Below, piece after piece: positions 53,907 through 64,000 of a stretch of DNA of 64,000 bases (positions within the stretch are counted from its first letter, which is position 1; every line of letters starts with the position of its first letter). The stretch lies in sequence record PV730302.1; one strand, written 5' to 3'. A program made the position numbers and the translations under genes. The DNA comes from a phage. The notes below the pieces were generated by a model that saw only the letters and a list, made by a program, of their open reading frames with translations, was not told where the DNA came from and did not search any database.

Positions 53907-54394
53907 TTGGTAATAATCTCGATGATGTCATCACGTGACAGGGAATTGATAAGAACCGTTTTAGGGTTTTCACACTGGATTTTATACGTTTCGAACATAA
54001 AACATAATTCTTCAGCGGTGTGGTAAGGACTTGAAATGCCAAGGCGATTAAACTTGTCGCTTAATGGGTCGCAAATCAAATAGAACGTGATGCCTGAGAT
54101 TTTAACATTAGGCTGGCTGATGTTAATGAATACCTCGGCATCGTACTTGGAAAGGTTGTTTTGGAGAAACTCAACCATAGAGTTGACAGCTTCAGGCATG
54201 GCTTCACGCTTTTCTTCAGCATAACGGGTAGAGTATTCTTTTTGCTTGATTTTCTTTTTAGCATTTTTGGCTAAAGTAACACGAAGATCGGTCAGGTAAC
54301 CTACTGCACGAGAACCTTTAAAAACTTGGATACCGTCAGTAGAGTCACCAAAAGCCTTAACAACCATTTCGTTAGTAATCATTTGCATATTCAT
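53894..54394 (-). CDS. alc: Putative Alc (blocks host transcription of cytosine DNA)
   Basis: Start at internal ATG (MNMQMITNEMV) after AGGAG; about 166 aa; T4 alc position between pseT region and rnlA. Confidence 0.55.
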   Translation of the reverse strand: MNMQMITNEMVVKAFGDSTDGIQVFKGSRAVGYLTDLRVTLAKNAKKKIKQKEYSTRYAEEKREAMPEAVNSMVEFLQNNLSKYDAEVFINISQPNVKISGITFYLICDPLSDKFNRLGISSPYHTAEELCFMFETYKIQCENPKTVLINSLSRDDIIEIITKCLN

Positions 54395-54419
54395 TTGTTT
54401 TCTCCTCATTAGTTGGTAA

Positions 54420-54452
54420 GTCTATACTAACACAACATGAGGAGATGTAAAC
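54420..54452 (-). promoter_or_regulatory. T4 early-type promoter GTTTAC-N17-TAGTAT (alc)
   Basis: Minus strand; -35 overlaps rnlA stop; AGGAG RBS follows. Confidence 0.5.
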
Positions 54453-55600
54453 TACTCTACCATAATTTCTTTCAAATATTTTTCAGGGATTTGGGCTTTA
54501 TGGTTTTTCAAGAACACAGAGTTAATCTGGTCTACAACCGTATCATAATTAATGCCACCTACGTACGCCTGCATAAGAATAGAGAACAACCCTGGGAAGT
54601 CCTTAAGGATTAATTGACCTGTAACAGCGTAGTCCTTACGGTCGCGGCCCTTAAGTTGGGAGTACGCTGCTTCTAACAAGGCCAATGATTGTTCTAAGTA
54701 ATCTAAATGGATGCGTTCAAAGGCATCGATTTTCTCGATAGCAAACGAATCCGTACTGAACAGGCCACGAAGGTCGTCGGTTCCGCCAGCCACTACAACT
54801 TCAAACAAACGTTCGTTATTGTTAATGGAATCTTTGGTATGATGCAGTGCACTGTACCAGGCAGTTTTGAGTTTAAAGAACGTACCATCTTTAAGTACAA
54901 AGATGAAACCTTCAATACCCTCTTGTTTACGGATGTTTTCTACGAAATCACCTTCAGTGAGGTCATAGCTTTCAACCAAATGCTTACGCAGGGCCCCATC
55001 TTTAAACAATTCGGCATACGGAATATATTCACCTGTTTCATTATTACGAACGTTCAACAGGATGAGATTTGTTTCTTGGTAAGCCAGCACGATACGGTTG
55101 GTAGGTGCAACATATTCAAGGTTGCAGGTATACCCAGCTTTGGTGATTTCTTCCAGACGGGCAGCAAAAGCCTCGTTCTCAGGGAGACGAAGGAACCGTA
55201 AAGAATCATGCACCATTGATGAATGGATAGAGCCTTTAGATTTAACAGAAAGATACTGCCGGTCCATGAATGTAGAAATCAGAGAACCATCTTCCTTAGC
55301 CATTACGAGGTCAATATTTTCTGGTGACAAATCCAGACCGATAGTCAGTGGGTTTTCGTCGAGGTTAAAGAACTTTTGCATAGGACGAGCAGCAATACGT
55401 ACAGGACCGTTCTCGTCCATTTCAAACATAATGCCTCGGCACTCTAGTGCGCCGTCTTCCAACCAATCACTGTACGATGCATAGTTATAACTAAAGATGC
55501 GATAGTTGACTCCTAGCGCACTCTGAAAGTCTTTAAAGAAGAACTTAGATTTAGTCGAGTTTTTAACCAGGGCCATCAAGTTATCATATAATTCAATCAT
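54452..55600 (-). CDS. rnlA: RNA ligase 1 (Rnl1)
   Basis: 382 aa; strong similarity to T4 Rnl1 (YRIFSYNYASYSDWL...ALECRGIMFEMD). Confidence 0.9.
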   Translation of the reverse strand: MIELYDNLMALVKNSTKSKFFFKDFQSALGVNYRIFSYNYASYSDWLEDGALECRGIMFEMDENGPVRIAARPMQKFFNLDENPLTIGLDLSPENIDLVMAKEDGSLISTFMDRQYLSVKSKGSIHSSMVHDSLRFLRLPENEAFAARLEEITKAGYTCNLEYVAPTNRIVLAYQETNLILLNVRNNETGEYIPYAELFKDGALRKHLVESYDLTEGDFVENIRKQEGIEGFIFVLKDGTFFKLKTAWYSALHHTKDSINNNERLFEVVVAGGTDDLRGLFSTDSFAIEKIDAFERIHLDYLEQSLALLEAAYSQLKGRDRKDYAVTGQLILKDFPGLFSILMQAYVGGINYDTVVDQINSVFLKNHKAQIPEKYLKEIMVE

Positions 55601-56010
55601 TGCTTTATCCTATGTTGGGTATTCCAAGGTGGATTAAATTTTTTTATGAACATTGGCTCTTCAAGAGACATGGTCTCAACTGACATAGTTCCAAGTTCGT
55701 TAGTCATCGACAGATTAAAGCACTGCCGTGCATAGAACTCTACCTTTTTACCTGCCATTAATGCTTCATGAATCAGAATGGACTTAGTCGAATCTGACGT
55801 TTGGTCCTTACGATTAATGGCTGTTCGGTAGTAGTTGATGCGCTTACGAAGATTTTTAGTCTTCCCGATGTAGACTAGTATATCATCAACCGCTATAGCA
55901 TATATGACATTTTGTTTATTTGGTACCGTAAGTGGAGCTATGGTGGCGTCATCTTGGAGTTCTAGGGTGACGTACTTGATAAAGCTAAATTCGTCTGCGA
56001 TTTCTTTCAT
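55597..56010 (-). CDS. denA: Endonuclease II (GIY-YIG family)
   Basis: Start at internal ATG (MKEIADEFSF); VIYAIAVDDILVYIGKTKNLRKRINYY matches T4 EndoII GIY-YIG motif. Confidence 0.85.
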   Translation of the reverse strand: MKEIADEFSFIKYVTLELQDDATIAPLTVPNKQNVIYAIAVDDILVYIGKTKNLRKRINYYRTAINRKDQTSDSTKSILIHEALMAGKKVEFYARQCFNLSMTNELGTMSVETMSLEEPMFIKKFNPPWNTQHRIKQ

Positions 56011-56018
56011 AGCAATAA

Positions 56019-56032
56019 GGGGCCGAAGCCCC
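56019..56032 (-). terminator. Hairpin GGGGC-cgaa-GCCCC between nrdB and denA
   Basis: GC hairpin in the 27-nt gap after nrdB stop; poor T-run. Confidence 0.35.
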
Positions 56033-56037
56033 ATTCC

Positions 56038-57177
56038 TTAAAAATATTTCTTATACGATGCCATTACTTTTTCATCAACATCGTTATCAATTTGTGCTAC
56101 AAGGTAAGAACTGATTTCCACTTCCTGAGGAGCAGCCTGTACAGCATCAGAGTTCAGGTATTCGCGAATCCAAGGATATGGATGGCGGGCAGGGGCATCA
56201 GTAATAGGACATGGTAAGCCACATTGCTTCATACGAGAAACTGTCAGGTAATCGACAAAAGCACCCATGTTCTGAGTATTTAATCCAGGGCAAGTACCAT
56301 CTTTGAACAGGTGAGCGGCCCATTCTTTTTCTTGACGGTTAACTTCCATGAAAATATCAACTGCTTCTTGTTCACACTCTTGAGCAATTTTAACCCATTC
56401 AGCACCATCAGTACCAAGTTGGAGTTGACGAATAATGTACTGGGTACCTTTAAGGTGAAGCTGTTCATCACGTGCAATGAACTTCATAATCTTAGCATTA
56501 CCTTCCATGATTTCCATGTTTTTATGGAAGTTAAAGGTGCATGCGAAAGATACGTAAAAACGAATAGCTTCCAGGGCGTTGATTACGTGCAGACAGAGGT
56601 AAAGAGAACGCATTAGTTCGTATTTAGCCTGTTTTACGCCTTCGCTAAACTCATGATATTCTTCTAAAGCATTCTGATAAAGGCGAGTTTTCTCGATAAC
56701 GTCATCATAATAACGACCAATGGATTCGGCACGTTTCATGATAGCATCATCTAACAGAATTTCATCAAATACCTTAGATGGGTCTGTATAGAGGTTACGC
56801 ATGATATGGGTATATGAACGAGAGTGAATGGTCTCACTAAAGGTCCATGTAGCCACCCAAGTATCAAGGCTAGGGTCGGAAATCAAGGCTTGGAGTGCTG
56901 CAGAAGGAGCACGACCTTGGATACTATCCAGAAGTGATTGATACTTCAGGTTATTGGTAAAAATATTTTGTTGGAATTGTGGAAGCTTATTAAATTGAGC
57001 AGCATCCATCATCAAGTTGACTTCTTCTGGACGCCAGAAAAAACTCAACTGCTTTTCACAAAGCTCTTCGAATACTTTATGACGTTGGATATCATAACGG
57101 GCAATACCCAATCCTGAACCAAAGAACATCGGCTCGACTAAAACATCAACTGGGGTAGTATTAAAAACTGTAGACAT
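56038..57177 (-). CDS. nrdB: Ribonucleotide reductase small (beta) subunit, uninterrupted
   Basis: 379 aa continuous ORF; di-iron/tyrosyl radical protein; no intron-sized interruption visible. Confidence 0.93.
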   Translation of the reverse strand: MSTVFNTTPVDVLVEPMFFGSGLGIARYDIQRHKVFEELCEKQLSFFWRPEEVNLMMDAAQFNKLPQFQQNIFTNNLKYQSLLDSIQGRAPSAALQALISDPSLDTWVATWTFSETIHSRSYTHIMRNLYTDPSKVFDEILLDDAIMKRAESIGRYYDDVIEKTRLYQNALEEYHEFSEGVKQAKYELMRSLYLCLHVINALEAIRFYVSFACTFNFHKNMEIMEGNAKIMKFIARDEQLHLKGTQYIIRQLQLGTDGAEWVKIAQECEQEAVDIFMEVNRQEKEWAAHLFKDGTCPGLNTQNMGAFVDYLTVSRMKQCGLPCPITDAPARHPYPWIREYLNSDAVQAAPQEVEISSYLVAQIDNDVDEKVMASYKKYF

Positions 57178-57212
57178 ATTATTCTCATTTATTATGGGTT
57201 TAAATTATTTTA

Positions 57213-58016
57213 TCACATATTATGTATAAGCACTTCAGTCTGGAATGACACACCTTTTGATACTTTTTGATATCTAGTTTCAAAATATTCAATTTTGAAA
57301 TTGTTGGATAGGGCCCAATCTTTTAGAATGTTGTTATTAGTAACATCTGATAAATTATTAGTTATAATAAATTTAGACTTTGACTGTTTAATTTTATCTA
57401 ACAATTCTAATTCATCCTTTTCTTCCCATCCTGAATATTTAAATTTGGTAGAAAGATATGGTGGGTCGATGAATAAGTTCTTGTTTTCAAAATCTAAATC
57501 TCTGAATGATTTATTTGAAAAACTTAACAGATGTTGTCTATTTTTAAAAGCGGCGAATTTATCCTGTTGCGATTTATTAAAAGAAGTTCTAGAGTATTTG
57601 GCTCTATCCGCAAAAGAAGCTATATACTTATCATCTTTAGAAAATTTTAACATTGAACTGAATGCAAATAAATGTAGAACATACAAATACAGTCCGTTTT
57701 TAGTTTTATCGTATTCCTTTGCCAGAGAGTAAAACGGTTTAGGGTCCACATCATTTAAGCCGAAATCATCAATGATTTGGACAACATCGTTCATTGATGA
57801 AGTTTTCATCGCGTTGTACATATTGATGACATGATAATTAATATCATTACACTCAACTCGTCGCCCACAATTCATAGAAAATCCGAGGCCACCACAAAAG
57901 GCATCTAAAACTGTATTATCATCAAAGCCCAATACAAATCTATTAATAAAATCCATGTATTTGTGTTTTGAACCCGGGTAAGTTATTGCCGAACAGTATT
58001 TCATATTACTCCTCAT
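57213..58016 (-). CDS. Dam-family DNA N6-adenine methyltransferase (orphan)
   Basis: 267 aa; FCGGLG (motif I) N-terminal and DPPY (motif IV) C-terminal; AT-rich relative to flanks. Confidence 0.78.
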   Translation of the reverse strand: MRSNMKYCSAITYPGSKHKYMDFINRFVLGFDDNTVLDAFCGGLGFSMNCGRRVECNDINYHVINMYNAMKTSSMNDVVQIIDDFGLNDVDPKPFYSLAKEYDKTKNGLYLYVLHLFAFSSMLKFSKDDKYIASFADRAKYSRTSFNKSQQDKFAAFKNRQHLLSFSNKSFRDLDFENKNLFIDPPYLSTKFKYSGWEEKDELELLDKIKQSKSKFIITNNLSDVTNNNILKDWALSNNFKIEYFETRYQKVSKGVSFQTEVLIHNM

Positions 58017-58058
58017 TTGTTAGTGACTCGTCCGTGAGTCAATTATAATCAGATTTTA

Positions 58059-60314
58059 TTAAAGCTTACATGCTGCACAATCGTCGGCTTTAGGAGTTTC
58101 GATTTCATAGTCATCAGTACCAGAGCCATCACGGGTATTATGGTAATAAAGGTTCTTACCACCGTAGTACCAGAAATACAACAGGTCATCAAGCATTACT
58201 GACATCGGAACTTTTCCTTTTGGGAAAATCTGCGGGTCATAATATGTATTAGCTGATGCCGATTGACACACCCATTTCAACGCTATTGCCACTTGGGTAA
58301 GATAAGGTTTATTACCTTTCTTAGCAAGGGTCCAAGCGTAATCGTAGAGTCCTTGGTTATGTTCTACATTAGGAACTACCTGACGGAAGTTACCTTCTTT
58401 AGATTCTTTAATACTTACCGGACCGCGTGGAGGTTCGATACCGTTTGTAGAGTTGGAAACCTGGCTGCTTGATTCACACGGCATAAGTGCTGATAATGTG
58501 CTATTACGGATGCCATGTTTAGCCAAGTCTTCCCGCAACGACGTCCAGTCACAAACATAGTTAGGGGCTGCGATTTGGTCAATCTTTTTATTGTACCAGT
58601 CGATAGGTAATTCGCCTCGAGACCATTTAGTGTCTGAATAATACTCGCAAGGTCCTTTTTCTTCGGCCAACTTGATTGATGCTCGGATAAGTCCATATTG
58701 TAATCTCTCAAACAGTTCATGAGTTAAATCATTAGCGTCTTCATAAGAAGCAAAGTTGCTTGCCAACCAAGCGGCGTAGTTAGTAACACCAACACCCAGA
58801 TTACGACGTTTCTTGGCCTTCAGAGCTTCAGGAACAGGATAATCTTGGTAGTCCAATAGGTTATCAAGTGCACGTACCTGGACTTCAGCGAGCTCGTTGA
58901 TTTTGTCTTGGTCCTGCCAATCGAAGTTATCCAATACGAATGCAGACAACGTACACAAACCAATTTCAGCGTCCGGACTATTCACGTCAGTAGTAGGGAT
59001 AGCAATTTCACAACACAAGTTGCTCTGTCGAATAGGAGCTTTTTCACGAATAAATGGTGTGAAGTTGTTAGTGTTATCAACGAACTGAGGATAAATTCGT
59101 GCAGTGCCTGAGCGTTCGGTCATGAACAATTCGAAAAGGTCGCGTGCTTTAATACGTTTCTTACGAATACTAGGGTCTTTTTCTGCGGCTTCATACAATT
59201 CACGGAAACGGTCTTGGTCTTCGAAATAAGAATAATAAAGCTCACCACCCATTTCGTGAGGACTAAACAACGTGATGTAATCATTTTTACCGAAACGTTC
59301 CATCATAAGGTCGTTCATCTGGATTCCGTAGTCCATATGGCGAATACGGTTCTCATCGACACCTTTGTTGTTTTTCAGAACGAGCAGATTTTCAACTTCC
59401 AAATGCCAAATAGGATAATAAGCAGTAGCAGCGCCGCCACGGATTCCACCTTGTGAACATGATTTAACAGCAGTCTGGAAATGTTTCCAGAATGGAATAA
59501 CGCCAGTATGTTTGACTTCACCCATGCCAATACGAGAACCTTCAGCACGAATCATACCAACGTTGATACCAATACCTGCACGTTTAGAAATGTATTCAAT
59601 TATTGAGTTAGCAGTTTTGTTAATAGATTTCAGCGAGTCGCCTGCTTCAATAACCACACAAGAACTAAATTGACGAGTCGGTGTACGTGCTCCAGCCATA
59701 ATAGGAGTTGGTAATGAAACCTGACGGGTACTTACAGCATCATAAAAACGAATAATATGTGCCAAACGATTACCTGGCTCTTCTTGGTGTAAGGCCATGC
59801 CAATACACATGATAGCGAACTGAGGGGTTTCGTAGATTTTACCCGTGGTCTTATCTTTAACCAGATATTTCTCTTTCAGCTGCATCGCACCTGCATAGGT
59901 CAATTCAAAGTCACGTTCATGCTTGATATGAGATTCTAAGAAAGTAATTTCTTCTGCAGAATATCGAGACAGCAATTCAGGGTCATATTTACCTTCGTTA
60001 ACACAATAGGAAATATGGTCGATAAAGCTACGTGGTTCGAACTGGCCATAAACTTCTTTACGCAGTGCAAACATCAATTGCTTTGCAGCAACATATTGGT
60101 AATCAGGTTCCTCAACCGAAATAAGGTTGGCTGCGACCTTAACAGTCAGATTCTGGATATCTTTGGTAGTCATACCATCACGAAGATGAGATTTGATTTC
60201 TTCGTATAATTCATAGGGGTCGATTTGGGTTCCTTCACAGCCCCAAGTCAGAACTTTAATAATTTTTTGTGCGTCAAAATCTTGGGATACACCACTACTT
60301 TTTTGTACTTGCAT
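58059..60314 (-). CDS. nrdA: Ribonucleotide reductase large (alpha) subunit
   Basis: 751 aa; class Ia RNR with C-terminal CxxC tail; synteny with T4 nrdA. Confidence 0.95.
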   Translation of the reverse strand: MQVQKSSGVSQDFDAQKIIKVLTWGCEGTQIDPYELYEEIKSHLRDGMTTKDIQNLTVKVAANLISVEEPDYQYVAAKQLMFALRKEVYGQFEPRSFIDHISYCVNEGKYDPELLSRYSAEEITFLESHIKHERDFELTYAGAMQLKEKYLVKDKTTGKIYETPQFAIMCIGMALHQEEPGNRLAHIIRFYDAVSTRQVSLPTPIMAGARTPTRQFSSCVVIEAGDSLKSINKTANSIIEYISKRAGIGINVGMIRAEGSRIGMGEVKHTGVIPFWKHFQTAVKSCSQGGIRGGAATAYYPIWHLEVENLLVLKNNKGVDENRIRHMDYGIQMNDLMMERFGKNDYITLFSPHEMGGELYYSYFEDQDRFRELYEAAEKDPSIRKKRIKARDLFELFMTERSGTARIYPQFVDNTNNFTPFIREKAPIRQSNLCCEIAIPTTDVNSPDAEIGLCTLSAFVLDNFDWQDQDKINELAEVQVRALDNLLDYQDYPVPEALKAKKRRNLGVGVTNYAAWLASNFASYEDANDLTHELFERLQYGLIRASIKLAEEKGPCEYYSDTKWSRGELPIDWYNKKIDQIAAPNYVCDWTSLREDLAKHGIRNSTLSALMPCESSSQVSNSTNGIEPPRGPVSIKESKEGNFRQVVPNVEHNQGLYDYAWTLAKKGNKPYLTQVAIALKWVCQSASANTYYDPQIFPKGKVPMSVMLDDLLYFWYYGGKNLYYHNTRDGSGTDDYEIETPKADDCAACKL

Positions 60315-60344
60315 AATTTCCTCAATATGTTAGGTTCTACAATT

Positions 60345-60369
60345 ATTCTATCATAGAACCTGTTAAGCA
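60345..60369 (-). promoter_or_regulatory. Candidate middle promoter for nrdA (MotA-like box TGCTTAA + TAGAAT)
   Basis: Minus strand TGCTTAA then 12 nt then TAGAAT, about 30 nt upstream of nrdA ATG; overlaps inverted repeat GGTTCTA...TAGAACC. Confidence 0.35.
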
Positions 60370-60380
60370 TGGACTGATAT

Positions 60381-60674
60381 TTATAGGTCTTCTAATGAGA
60401 ACGTGTCTTTGAAAAGTTTGTTAACAATCAAGGCTATCACATCCCCATGACAGTCCTTAGGTTTACAGGTACACGCTATTCGCATACCTCTAAGGGTTTC
60501 AAGATGTTCTCTTTTAATTTCACCTGATTTTATTTTAGCAATAAAGTATTCTTTAAAGTTCTTGATGTTTTCCTCACGGGTCCCATCTTTAAATGGATTA
60601 CCCCACATGGTTCCACGTTGGATGTTGACATCAAAATCTTCTTTATACTTGTTAACAACTCTACAGACTCTCAT
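60381..60674 (-). CDS. Hypothetical small Cys/His-containing protein
   Basis: 97 aa; WGNPF ... CTCKPKDCHGD; between td and nrdA. Confidence 0.5.
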   Translation of the reverse strand: MRVCRVVNKYKEDFDVNIQRGTMWGNPFKDGTREENIKNFKEYFIAKIKSGEIKREHLETLRGMRIACTCKPKDCHGDVIALIVNKLFKDTFSLEDL

Positions 60675-60735
60675 TATAGCACCAAATTAAGTCCGACCAT
60701 AATAACCAAAAACAGAGTACAGATTATTTGAATTT

Positions 60736-62512
<1,777 letters not shown>

Positions 62513-62522
62513 TATATTTTCC

Positions 62523-62762
62523 TCACGCTTTCTTAGCGATTTTCCAGTCAGCTTTAAATTGGTCAACGTCTGAGTGGTGAATCCAGAAACCCGATGAGCT
62601 ACCGTCTTCGTAAAGAGGACAACCATCACACTCATCTTTCCACCCCATTGCACACAAAGCTTGTTCAGCTTTTTCCAGAGCTTCCGGGTTATTACCTTGG
62701 ATTGTGAAGTACCATTTGCCTTTAACTTCAGAATCGTTGATTGATTCACGTTGTAATTTCAT
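62523..62762 (-). CDS. Hypothetical protein
   Basis: 79-aa ORF with Cys cluster (CDGCP). Confidence 0.45.
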   Translation of the reverse strand: MKLQRESINDSEVKGKWYFTIQGNNPEALEKAEQALCAMGWKDECDGCPLYEDGSSSGFWIHHSDVDQFKADWKIAKKA

Positions 62763-62838
62763 TTTATTCTCCGGTGTTTAGTTGTTATCTCAGTATGGGG
62801 CCATTATATCATAGCCCCATTTGGCTGTACACCACTTT

Positions 62839-63216
62839 TTACTGAATATCAAAAGTCGCTTTAATCAGGGCAATGACTTCAGCGGCATTTTTGTGATTGA
62901 CTTGTACATGAATGGTTTGGGTATCAATATCAGGGGCATCGCTATCAACTTCTAGGAAGTGACAGAATTCCCATTCACCGAGTTCAAAGTACTCATCAGG
63001 CCCACCCATACTATTCAGGATGGTGCCATCTTTCATTTCAACTTTTTCAACAAAATAATCACCTTCAATATAACTCATATCCAGGACTTTGAAGGAATTG
63101 CCATGTCGTTCCATCAACCTGACCATGCACGAATTATAATTATCATCAGGACTACCAGCGATGAATTGTTTTTTAGCAGCAGGGTCTAATACGTAAAATT
63201 TACCAGTTTCCATCAT
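62839..63216 (-). CDS. Hypothetical protein
   Basis: Track ORF begins at a non-ATG codon; start set to ATGATG (MMETGKFYV) preceded by GAGGAA; hairpin 63239-63262 upstream. Confidence 0.5.
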   Translation of the reverse strand: MMETGKFYVLDPAAKKQFIAGSPDDNYNSCMVRLMERHGNSFKVLDMSYIEGDYFVEKVEMKDGTILNSMGGPDEYFELGEWEFCHFLEVDSDAPDIDTQTIHVQVNHKNAAEVIALIKATFDIQ

Positions 63217-63274
63217 TTTAATTTCCTCATTTTTGTTGAGGGAACATATTATCATGTTCCCGTCGGTTTGTATA

Positions 63275-63502
63275 CTAAGCTTCAATCAAATTCATATAAA
63301 ATTCAGCGTCTTCCGGGTGCATCCCTTCGCAATATTCATTTTGCATAAAGCGGGTAAGGTCTTCAAGAGGACCTTGGACTTCAATTTGAATACTAAAGAA
63401 TTGGGTATCTTTAATGTAAGTCATACACAAAGAAGGATAACGATTACGGATAACTTCGTAAGTGTATTCAAAATCAACGATATCAATATTAACCTTAGCC
63501 AT
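63275..63502 (-). CDS. Hypothetical early protein
   Basis: Start at second ATG ([13 protein letters not shown]) after GAGG; GTTTAC-N17-TACTAT promoter at 63532-63563. Confidence 0.5.
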
Positions 63503-63531
63503 TTTATTTTCCTCACTCATTAGTTGATAGG

Positions 63532-63563
63532 TCTATAGTATCATGTTTAAAGCAGATGTAAAC
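63532..63563 (-). promoter_or_regulatory. T4 early-type promoter GTTTAC-N17-TACTAT
   Basis: Upstream of ORF 63275..63502. Confidence 0.5.
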
Positions 63564-63565
63564 AC

Positions 63566-63826
63566 TTATTTTTGAATTTTATCGAGCCATTTACCAAGTT
63601 TAATCATTTCTTTGGTAGCTTTTTCCATACTTCTGAATTTAACCAGTAAAGGTTGAGCATCAACACCCATAACTAAAGTGGTTACAAGACTATGTTCACC
63701 TACAAGCCATAACGAATACGTTTGGATATCGAGCCCATAATTTCGGTCTTTATGAACTCGTACACCCATCACTTCAAACTGTTCGCTGGCTTTTTCTACT
63801 GCATCCAGGAAATCATCTTTAGTCAT
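63566..63826 (-). CDS. Hypothetical protein
   Basis: Start at internal ATG (MTKDDFLDAVEK) overlapping upstream stop (TAACATG). Confidence 0.45.
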   Translation of the reverse strand: MTKDDFLDAVEKASEQFEVMGVRVHKDRNYGLDIQTYSLWLVGEHSLVTTLVMGVDAQPLLVKFRSMEKATKEMIKLGKWLDKIQK

Positions 63827-63827
63827 G

Positions 63828-64000
63828 TTAGGCCTTAAAAGTTTTTTGCAAAAGTTCAATGATTTGGTCAACGTTCTGTTCGGTAACAATGCAATGGATT
63901 TGAGTCACACCTGCTTTAGTAACAGGTCCGTCAACTTCATCTTGTTCGGCATATTCACGGAAGCAATAGAACTCGTCTTCATGCAATTCAAAATATTCCT
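63828..64000 (-). CDS. 3' end of hypothetical gene extending beyond window
   Basis: Open minus-strand frame from window edge ending ...IIELLQKTFKA with stop at 63828-63830. Confidence 0.4.
   Translation of the reverse strand, partial: EYFELHEDEFYCFREYAEQDEVDGPVTKAGVTQIHCIVTEQNVDQIIELLQKTFKA

Follow-up and report, generated by a model that had tools for sequence, protein, structure and literature searches.

A Dam-family methyltransferase gene in the nrdA–nrdB slot of T-even phages, probably carried by recombination and usually the only Dam of its hosts

T4 Dam, an orphan GATC methylase of 259 aa (PDB 1Q0S, 1YFJ, 1YFL, and 1YF3), stands for the canonical dam genes of T-even phages, taken here as those that lie between gene 56 (dCTPase) and primase (58-61) and whose products are at least ~75% identical to T4 Dam. 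E. coli Dam (EcoDam) and DpnM (M.DpnIIA; PDB 2G1P and 2DPM) share its D12-class fold. At the fourth base pair of GATC, the guanine, which is on the non-target strand, is read by R124 in EcoDam and by R116 in T4 Dam, and an EcoDam R124A mutant no longer discriminates C:G at position 4 (PMC4417163); the roles of the base-reading residues discussed below are taken from that work. The nrdA–nrdB spacer of T4 is occupied by the free-standing HNH homing endonuclease gene mobE (PMC2790892, PMC2988022), which is promoterless and co-transcribed with nrdA. MobE nicks nrdB, and the immobile I-TevIII intron is carried along by co-conversion (PMC2790892). Here, we describe a Dam-family gene at this same address in a 64,000-nt stretch (below, the window) of the phage genome PV730302.1.

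The phage is a T4-like (JS98-type) coliphage of the genus Dhakavirus with a 04086-like backbone. Its nrdA–nrdB gap is filled by one ORF, 57213..58016, which the ORF listing confirmed as read in the initial annotation and placed on the minus strand. The product, hereafter the nrd-slot MTase, matched Pfam PF02086 (D12 class) over profile positions 1-251 of 253 (E 1.4e-19; score 71.3 bits, cut-off 22), and T4 Dam was both its best PDB match by sequence (E 9e-30) and its top match by profile search (E 1.7e-106). PHROG labels it "DNA methyltransferase", and the best PADLOC model was "orphan methyltransferase" (E 7.5e-32). An AlphaFold2 model (pLDDT 86.8, pTM 0.85) predicts a confident, complete Dam fold, with a Rossmann-like catalytic domain and a helical DNA-binding domain carrying a beta-hairpin; Foldseek placed T4 Dam at the top (TM 0.84-0.85), followed by EcoDam (0.72-0.75) and DpnM (0.73). 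HMM search, the T4 Dam sequence match and fold thus bear out the original assignment to the alpha-class N6-adenine methyltransferases of the Dam family. The proposed motif order also held: motif I, FCGGLG (aa 36-41), and motif IV, DPPY (aa 180-183), are 140 aa apart and invariant across all aligned relatives, D180, P182, and Y183 being kept in 143-146 of 147. Between them lies the target-recognition region, with the DNA-reading hairpin at about aa 115-142, giving the order motif I, recognition hairpin, DPPY that is also found in T4 Dam.

The likeness to T4 Dam extends to size (263 against 259 aa), to the status of orphan enzyme of a T-even phage, and to several of the DNA contacts. FxGxG, DPPY, and the cofactor-pocket residues are conserved, as are the counterparts of T4 K11, F111, S112, M114, and R130: K13, F115, S116, M118, and R134, of which the first four correspond to EcoDam K9, Y119, N120, and L122. 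In contrast, the nrd-slot MTase is only 31-33% identical to T4 Dam and to the canonical Dams of phages MX01 and BGP, and it differs at R116 (Lys), N118 (Ser), and P126 (Ser) and by an insertion of 6-7 aa after the R130 equivalent. By both identity and location, it stands outside the canonical T-even dam genes. It shares the fold, catalytic motifs, and cofactor motifs of EcoDam and DpnM, but identity in the structural alignments is 14-17%, and these enzymes were reached by profile search only, not by single-sequence search at E 0.01. The score under NCBIfam TIGR00571 ("dam") was 68.7 bits, below the cut-off of 114.85, and that under the E. coli Dam equivalog NF008152 was 19 bits against a cut-off of 441. 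At 50% identity, the lineage clusters apart from all others, the next relative being 32% identical. A word-indexed protein search had returned only nine relatives, and exhaustive HMMER searching confirmed that the lone cluster is not an artefact of sensitivity. The MTase is plausibly an active AdoMet-dependent adenine-N6 DNA methylase, as predicted from its sequence; in the literature on the carrier phages, methylation reports cover cytosine modifications only, and we found none of adenine methylation.

The lineage is rare, occurring in ~9 of ~850 T-even records and in some metagenome contigs, and consists of three alleles (types A, B, and C) that are 72–99% identical. The closest copy is that of Salmonella phage CF-SP2 (99.6% aa identity), followed by Escherichia phages fDHCT2 (95%) and vB_Eco_BGP (94%), Escherichia phages 236Ecol005PP, ECO07P2, T4_ev240, EP02SG, and NR1 (~79%), and Klebsiella phage PhiKpNIH-6 (72%). 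The window phage is a further carrier, its type A allele being nearly identical to that of CF-SP2. The GenBank copies represent one and the same gene as ours, identically placed and with no functional difference, and most of the records already annotate them as "DNA adenine methylase" or "dam". A scan of IMG/VR for extra copies gave five pattern matches, none confirmed by tblastn, and added no loci. The MTase lies between nrdA and nrdB in nine of nine phage records and in two metagenome contigs (type C), a slot shared across Dhakavirus, Tequatrovirus, Klebsiella T4-like contigs, and CF-SP2. Among the nearest relatives of the window phage, on the other hand, the site is empty: the closest, phage 04086, is 98–100% identical on both sides and lacks exactly the 829 bp of the insert, and JS98 (with a 52-bp spacer) and IME281 have empty sites too. 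In LHE83, another Dhakavirus, the slot holds a mobE-like HNH gene matching homing-endonuclease and HNH PHROGs, which, together with the published T4 data (PMC2790892, PMC2988022), supports the earlier identification of the slot with the mobE position of T4.

It had been implied that the MTase is an extra enzyme beside the phage's own dam, and this proved mostly wrong. Reading the canonical slot between gene 56 and primase, we found it empty in fDHCT2, CF-SP2, and 236Ecol005PP, that is, in three of the four carriers inspected; the fourth, BGP, has both a canonical dam and the type A gene in the nrd slot. The canonical slot is empty also in 04086 and JS98, the nearest relatives of the window phage, from which we infer that it is empty in the window phage itself, where it falls outside the 64 kb. 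By tblastn, six of nine carriers have a single Dam-like place, and NR1 has been described as lacking a T4-type Dam (PMC13390438). A second dam added to a resident one is thus rejected for most carriers.

The reading frame is longer than the likely coding sequence. The longest ORF begins with four codons (MRSN, 58005..58016, minus strand) that overlap a Shine–Dalgarno sequence, GAGGAG, at 58014-58009 and are probably an untranslated leader. Types B and C lack the upstream ATG, and fDHCT2 has other codons following it, whereas all alleles keep the next ATG in frame, at 58004, downstream of the GAGGAG, and all alignments start with M-K. We therefore place the most likely true start at 58004, giving a CDS of 263 aa at 57213..58004 on the minus strand with its TGA stop at 57215-57213.

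The distance between the nrdA and nrdB coding sequences is 881 nt in the window against 52 nt in JS98, defining an 829-bp insert. Alignment with the empty junctions of JS98 and IME281 and with the Tequatrovirus junctions showed that two copies of the translation-initiation string of nrdB bracket it, both on the minus strand: the left copy, AAATGAGGAGTAATATG (58002..58018), now serves the MTase as ribosome-binding site and start, and the right copy, AAATGAGAATAATATG (57175..57190), does so for nrdB. Recombination between the copies would restore the exact empty site. On the nrdA side, the spacer contains the hairpin TGACTC-ACGGAC-GAGTCA (58024..58041, minus strand), directly 3' of the nrdA stop and outside the insert. 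The inverted repeat pointed out at first is therefore real, but its 6-bp stem, which closes a loop of 6 nt, is perfect rather than imperfect, and it has no tie to the insert: it belongs to the native nrdA–nrdB spacer, since JS98 and IME281 have it, with a 7-8 bp stem, and have no MTase. This also rejects the repeat as an insertion scar or MTase operator. The hairpin is kept in the Tequatrovirus carriers and shows a compensatory A:T to G:C change in the type C contigs; folding is predicted at -9 to -10.7 kcal/mol, with z-scores from -1.5 to -2.8, and a search for a terminator-type U-tract beside it found none.

A self-contained transcription unit was considered and rejected. A consensus scan of 56900-58400, which did not include T4 middle and late promoter motifs, gave no minus-strand promoter or terminator, and plus-strand matches did not exceed shuffle expectation. 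Like T4 mobE, with which it shares the slot, the MTase would depend on upstream transcription, presumably as part of the nrdA–nrdB mRNA, and be translated from the duplicated nrdB ribosome-binding site. It differs from mobE in being a methylase and not a nuclease and in that no internal terminator was found, and from both mobE and the LHE83 endonuclease, which use UAAUGA coupling, in having its own strong Shine–Dalgarno sequence. The initial description of an orphan without an adjacent nuclease partner stands: the neighbors are nrdA (58059..60314) and nrdB (56038..57177), both on the minus strand and identified by Pfam, and there is no adjacent cognate endonuclease of the kind that defines a type II restriction–modification system, in agreement with the PADLOC call. 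A GIY-YIG ORF at 55597-56034, considered as a partner and rejected, is denA/EndoII, a core T4 gene that occurs beyond nrdB in every relative, whether or not the MTase is there.

In base composition, the gene is foreign to its surroundings. Its GC is 0.307 (GC3 0.284), compared with 0.417 for nrdA, 0.405 for nrdB, and a window mean of 0.401 (sd 0.034), and it is the lowest among real ORFs of at least 120 aa in the window; only 0.4% of 792-bp windows reach such a low GC, every one of them overlapping the gene. The GC profile thus agrees with the AT-richness relative to nrdA and nrdB that had been judged by eye. Neighbor-like composition combined with conserved presence in close relatives, against which the initial annotation had set its claim, is not what we found, because the gene is absent from close relatives and its GC is lower. 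The protein is under selection: the frame is unbroken at 263-264 aa in 11 of 11 copies, and dN/dS values of 0.06-0.18, that is, purifying selection, indicate a functional gene.

Sequence comparison makes a clear case for lateral transfers of the gene into CF-SP2 and BGP. Sliding identity against CF-SP2 revealed a tract of ~3 kb (window ~59700-56700) that is 95-100% identical within a backbone of 55-70% identity, and that includes the 3' ~1.7 kb of nrdA and the 5' ~0.5-0.9 kb of nrdB along with the MTase. Correspondingly, dS between the window and CF-SP2 is 0.027 for the MTase but 0.37 for nrdA and 0.57 for nrdB; for BGP, the values are 0.44 for the MTase against 1.23 for nrdA. The gene thus combines a sporadic presence among close relatives with flank co-conversion, the pattern of homing elements, although PF02086 is its only domain and it has no nuclease domain. 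Missing from 04086 despite 98-100% identical flanks and transferred with its flanks in CF-SP2, it therefore behaves like a passenger of a homing-type element without being one. As with the defunct I-TevIII intron, the MTase itself brings no means of movement, and still co-conversion tracts run through its nrd flanks. The precedent of MobE and I-TevIII and the homing endonuclease genes that lie within 1-2 kb of the MTase in 236Ecol005PP and BGP raise the idea that the MTase may be mobilized in trans; no homing endonuclease is found near it in this window, so trans-mobilization is not demonstrable there.

The gene was initially viewed as cargo in an insertion hot spot. Accessory, foreign, and patchily distributed it is, but a simply recent insertion does not fit the divergence between types A and B, whose dS of 1.2 for the MTase is close to that of the flanking nrdA (1.28) and nrdB (1.12) of the two genera. 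The match between allele and flank divergence makes the lineage look like an old resident of the nrd slot, often lost and occasionally transferred. Taken further, the same values could mean that the T-even common ancestor already had the MTase between nrdA and nrdB and that ~99% of the sequenced descendants have lost it, so that its patchiness would stem from deletion and not from insertion, a history to which we give some tentative weight but hold to be unlikely as stated. That the carriers in Dhakavirus and Tequatrovirus, CF-SP2, and the Klebsiella T4-like contigs share one slot agrees with such an origin, and the flanking direct repeats permit scarless deletion. However, the gene retains a GC of 28-31% whether the backbone is at 35% or 40%, with no amelioration seen, lateral transfers are evident, and co-conversion of the flanks with each transfer would alone mimic matched divergence of gene and flanks; the extreme rarity (~9 of ~850 records) weighs against it as well. 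As long residence with gene flow is part of both accounts, ancestry is compatible with our preferred explanation and the difference is mainly one of emphasis. That explanation, which we consider well supported and probable, is that the MTase is a functional orphan T4-Dam-like accessory cassette at the nrdA–nrdB slot, borne by homologous recombination and usually the sole Dam of its carrier.

Whether the type A enzyme acts on GATC is a separate matter. At the position of T4 R116 and EcoDam R124, the type A allele of the window has K120, whereas types B and C keep the Arg found in 123 of 147 relatives (Lys in 7). With this guanine-reading Arg replaced by Lys, the proline contact (P134 in EcoDam, P126 in T4) replaced by Ser, or by Ala in other nrd-slot alleles, and the 6-7 residue insertion, GATC specificity is not assured. 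These features open the possibility that type A has shifted off GATC and that phages exchange the nrd-slot gene as a "specificity cassette" directed against a different restriction system. K120 affects the first and most important base contact of Dam, and the hairpin is the fastest-evolving segment of the protein (omega 0.34 against 0.06-0.15 elsewhere), with 10 of 20 residues identical between alleles against 79% overall. BGP, in holding both genes, suggests that canonical dam and type A are not redundant. GATC itself is scarce, with 14 sites in the 64-kb window (~14-fold depletion), and a GATC methylase would find few substrates and be of doubtful benefit here. The depletion is equally strong in Dhakaviruses without any Dam-family gene, and we reject it as a result of, or as tied to, the MTase. 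Yet guanine O6/N7 can accept hydrogen bonds from Lys as well, the remaining contacts (K13, F115, S116, M118, and R134) are Dam-like, and the Pro134 position varies naturally across the family (P 69, S 27, A 21, T 18); that most carriers have no canonical dam fits a simple functional replacement. We accordingly regard a shift in specificity as possible but not probable. Rather doubtful in our view is its fuller form, in which non-GATC methylation would protect a Dam-less, GATC-purged phage while the recombination-borne gene hitch-hikes on homing-endonuclease traffic at nrdA–nrdB. The hairpin substitutions and the score below the NCBIfam dam cut-off could also be taken to mean that the methylase role has been lost, leaving, in a hot spot of homing endonucleases, either a passenger in decay or a protein that binds DNA or SAM for some new purpose; with the frame intact in all 11 copies, low dN/dS, invariant DPPY, FxGxG, and cofactor-pocket residues, and a confidently predicted complete Dam fold, this seems highly improbable. 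An immunity function against homing appears just as improbable. The MTase has its slot in common with mobE-type genes, and the counterpart of the MobE nick site (nt 122-126 of nrdB in PMC2790892, window 57056-57052) lies beside the insert, ~120 nt into nrdB, so that adenine methylation at or near MobE-like targets in nrdB or nrdA, or mere occupancy of the slot, might protect a carrier from invasion and favor the gene at precisely this position. The support is purely circumstantial, though: window 54287-64000 contains no GATC, hence none is near the nick site, MobE resistance has been explained by nucleotide polymorphisms in nrdB and not by methylation (PMC2790892), and 236Ecol005PP carries a mobile endonuclease inside nrdA alongside its nrd-slot MTase.

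Under the preferred reading of a functional, recombination-borne accessory Dam, homology predicts that the enzyme would use AdoMet to methylate the N6 of adenine on replicating phage DNA, within a short target that is either GATC itself or closely related to it. Being the only Dam-family enzyme in most carriers, it would act as a positional alternative to canonical dam and not as an addition. The likely payoff would be to shield residual target sites from restriction sensitive to adenine methylation, as for the classic phage Dam, and the anti-restriction or epigenetic role suggested at the outset is plausible. The gene has no mobility machinery; as the sequence comparisons show, phages gain and lose it when co-infecting genomes recombine through the highly conserved, homologous nrd flanks, possibly boosted in trans by homing endonucleases cutting nearby, and clean deletion can take place between the duplicated ribosome-binding strings.

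The MTase is an ordinary but well-resolved accessory gene, and its practical weight is small, as it is a recognizable Dam-family methylase and is labeled so in several GenBank records. It is informative in other respects. The mobE slot can hold non-nuclease cargo with homing-like co-conversion tracts that cross genus boundaries, and the gene may serve as a natural example of the trans-mobilization idea of Wilson and Edgell. With its uncommon Lys where Dam makes its main base contact, and in a genome nearly without GATC, the type A allele is a well-defined case for the evolution of Dam specificity; if the specificity cassette were true, it would provide protection against a restriction system not blocked by glucosyl-hmC. 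Finally, two dam genes that are not orthologous occur among T-even phages, each at its own address, and because carriers of the nrd-slot gene usually have no other, calls of "has dam" or "lacks dam" made from the canonical slot can mislead.

The gap between nrdA and nrdB on the minus strand of the window (57178-58058) fits exactly between the nrdA stop at 58059 and the nrdB start at 57177, and it is filled by a single open reading frame (ORF), in its longest form 57213..58016, as the initial annotation had proposed. Since the ATG at 58004, the second in frame, is the conserved start and has GAGGAG before it, and the upstream ATG is missing from two of the three alleles (types B and C; the window carries type A), we place the methyltransferase (MTase) gene at 57213..58004 on the minus strand, coding for 263 aa; all MTase alignments begin at M-K. 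The protein matched the PF02086 profile (D12-class N6-adenine DNA methyltransferase) from end to end, scoring 71 bits where the cut-off is 22, and the claimed motifs, FCGGLG followed by DPPY, were found at residues 36-41 and 180-183. The AT-richness noted earlier was also recovered: the GC content is 30.7% (GC3 28.4%) in comparison with 41.7% for nrdA, 40.5% for nrdB and a window mean of 40.1% (sd 3.4). No real ORF of 120 aa or more has a lower GC content, and the whole-window GC minimum falls on the gene. It had further been described as an orphan without a nuclease partner, consistent with its best PADLOC model ("orphan methyltransferase") and with its flanks, nrdA and nrdB; the GIY-YIG ORF past nrdB is denA, which belongs to the T4 core genes. 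The finding is real, and the central identification correct. With dN/dS at 0.06-0.18 in every comparison, the MTase is under purifying selection, and we take these comparisons to establish a full-length, selected gene of Dam fold at a fixed address.

The AlphaFold2 model of the protein was confident (pLDDT 86.8, pTM 0.85) and fitted T4 Dam (TM 0.84-0.85) better than EcoDam and DpnM. T4 Dam was also the best match by sequence and by profile search (E 1.7e-106 for the profile), and the score was below the NCBIfam "dam" cut-off. In T4 numbering, K11, F111, S112, M114 and R130 are conserved, whereas N118 is replaced by Ser and P126 by Ser or Ala, and 6-7 residues are inserted after R130. The Arg of T4 position 116 is retained in types B and C, but every type A copy has a Lys there (K120). 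The EcoDam counterpart of this Arg, R124, is the first residue to contact the site specifically, at the guanine of the fourth base pair in GATC, and R124A loses the discrimination for C:G at that position (PMC4417163). Among 147 detectable relatives, the K120 position is Arg in 123 and Lys in 7. The hairpin segment of the protein is its fastest-evolving part between alleles, with omega of 0.34 versus 0.06 in the C-terminal half and identity of 10/20 residues versus 79% overall. From sequence and model, we conclude that the MTase is a Dam-family adenine methylase, probably with a site of GATC or close to GATC; that type A recognises a different site is speculative.

GATC is the most under-represented tetranucleotide of the window, with 14 sites (3794, 16517, 21123, 23323, 33779, 36253, 39992, 40271, 42528, 43629, 45458, 50263, 50699 and 54286) against 200-230 expected, a ratio of 0.07; the second most depleted, CTAG, has a ratio of 0.47, and 54287-64000 contains no GATC at all. 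That the depletion is a consequence of the MTase is ruled out, as it is equally strong in Dhakaviruses without a Dam-family gene (1 of 39 in JS98 and 2 of 61 in 04086). As it is also weaker in Tequatrovirus fragments (ratio ~0.3), we regard it as a trait of the backbone. To an enzyme specific for GATC, a whole genome would offer only some 35-40 targets, making a large selective benefit less likely and leaving room for a shifted specificity.

Record comparison places the window among the JS98-type Dhakaviruses. Phage 04086, its closest relative by backbone, matches it at 98-100% identity on either side of the MTase but lacks exactly this gene, and the spacer is empty in JS98 and IME281 (52 bp). 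Subtracting the 52-nt JS98 spacer from the 881-nt gap gives an insert of 829 bp, positioned 3' of a spacer hairpin and flanked on each side by a copy of the nrdB translation-initiation string, the left one at 58018-58002 (AAATGAGGAGTAATATG) and the right one at 57190-57175 (AAATGAGAATAATATG), both on the minus strand. Empty sites have one copy, and recombination between the copies would therefore remove the MTase scarlessly. The same slot (window 57178-58058) holds in LHE83 (L004, 2214-2855) a 213-aa HNH/mobE-like homing endonuclease, the start of which overlaps the nrdA stop as TAATGA; the same overlap has been described for T4 mobE (PMC2988022). A single genus thus shows the slot in at least three conditions: empty, with an endonuclease or with a methylase.

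The inverted repeat upstream of the gene does exist, at 58041-58024 (minus strand), where a 6-bp stem pairs perfectly around a 6-nt loop, but it is not the MTase's own: empty sites have it too, with a longer stem, and it is native spacer sequence. It directly follows the nrdA stop codon and is conserved in Dhakavirus, Tequatrovirus and Klebsiella T4-like contigs (L002, L003, L007-L009, L018, L019). In the window, two T-to-C changes leave a stem of 6 bp in place of 7-8 bp, and type C contigs carry a compensatory A:T to G:C change of one pair (GACTCAT/ATGAGTC to GGCTCAT/ATGAGCC). No U-tract follows the hairpin. In mobE-less phages the nrdA-nrdB spacer has no terminator (PMC2790892), and the hairpin may be an mRNA 3' stabiliser, a processing site or an operator.

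A tblastn search of 50,697 phage records found the MTase lineage in nine: type A in CF-SP2 (99.6%), fDHCT2 (95%) and BGP (94%), type B (~79%) in the Tequatroviruses T4_ev240, EP02SG, 236Ecol005PP, ECO07P2 and NR1, and type C in Klebsiella phage PhiKpNIH-6 (72%). Every copy whose context was read lies between nrdA and nrdB, as do those of two metagenomic type C contigs. The nrd region is matched by ~850 records, giving an MTase frequency of roughly 1%. When HMMER was run exhaustively against 1.84 billion cluster representatives, only the MTase's own cluster reached E ≤ 1e-30, and the next match outside it was 32% identical.

Other junctions of this gene block vary as well. Between rnlA and denA (~55600 in the window), a hypothetical ORF of 216 aa is added in IME281 (L003, 598-1248) and probably also in 04086 (L005, gap 601-1683); the window has none, its rnlA and denA overlapping by 4 nt, and this is another variable junction. 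The td-nrdA gap, at the position of nrdA.1, encodes a 97-aa DUF4326 protein in the window (60381-60674, minus strand; Pfam E 8e-22). JS98 has there a 131-aa nrdA.1 and identity to JS98 falls to 75% at this end, indicating that this junction is also variable.

The proposal of a cargo gene in an insertion hot spot stands for the fixed slot and the mobE-like gene in LHE83, but the MTase looks like an old resident exchanged laterally. Between the window and ECO07P2 (type B), its dS of 1.2 equals that of the flanks (nrdA 1.28, nrdB 1.12), as would a lineage long settled in the slot in both Dhakavirus and Tequatrovirus. On this background, lateral transfers into CF-SP2 and BGP seem clear. The CF-SP2 backbone is just 55-70% identical to the window, whereas a tract of ~3 kb (window ~59700-56700) with the MTase at its centre is 95-100% identical, and dS is 0.027 for the MTase versus 0.37 for nrdA and 0.57 for nrdB; BGP, a Tequatrovirus with a type A allele, has an MTase dS of 0.44 versus 1.23 for nrdA. 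The tracts are of the co-conversion type, as from recombination between co-infecting T-even phages. Salmonella phage CF-SP2 (OM912978.1) is labelled Gelderlandvirus despite its Dhakavirus-like nrdA-MTase-nrdB tract, and the record would reflect either recombination between genera or a chimeric assembly of a mixed lysate. As read from the aligned genomes, we consider presence and absence in near-identical phages, co-conversion tracts and a duplicated ribosome-binding-site string to be demonstrated. By nicking nrdB at nt 122-126, MobE makes the otherwise immobile I-TevIII intron move in trans (PMC2790892), and two Tequatrovirus carriers have homing endonuclease genes 1-2 kb or less from the MTase, a plausible co-conversion distance; the window has no endonuclease gene near it. 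The endonuclease gene splits nrdA in 236Ecol005PP (L007, 2268-2978) and lies inside an nrdB intron in BGP (L008, 5648-6457). Mobilisation of the MTase in trans by such neighbours is speculative.

The initial annotation implied a dam additional to a resident one, and for most carriers this did not hold. In MX01 and BGP, the canonical T-even dam has gene 56 (dCTPase) on one side and the primase gene on the other; the BGP protein is identical at 253/259 positions to what we take to be the T4 Dam sequence. Read directly, this slot is empty in the carriers fDHCT2, CF-SP2 and 236Ecol005PP and in the non-carriers JS98 and 04086, and tblastn with canonical Dam gave no match in these five gene 56-primase loci. 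Six of the nine carriers have a single Dam-like place genome-wide (tblastn). The T4-type Dam-like gene is confined to Geo, EL and BGP among Durham Tequatroviruses (PMC13390438), and NR1 therefore lacks it; both genes are demonstrable only in BGP. By these comparisons, canonical dam is absent from most carriers. No other Dam-family gene was found within the 64-kb window, and the canonical slot of this phage, outside the 64 kb, is probably empty, judging from 04086. A metagenome contig of another T4-like phage (SRR14300940_4461; L020, 4001-4834) encodes between gene 32 and frd a T4 Dam homologue of the canonical type, with 57-59% identity to the Dam of MX01 and BGP; Dam-family genes thus occupy at least three slots of T4-like genomes.

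A consensus scan around the gene found no promoter or terminator of its own, and this, with the published behaviour of mobE, suggests that the MTase is co-transcribed with nrdA-nrdB. From family knowledge, the enzyme would use AdoMet to methylate adenine at N6 in phage DNA and may protect it from methylation-sensitive restriction. The MTase is of a known kind, and sibling genomes already carry its annotation. What the analysis adds is a corrected context, in which the gene is no additional dam, the inverted repeat does not belong to it, and the gene would be an old resident exchanged laterally; the K120 allele makes specificity one well-defined question.
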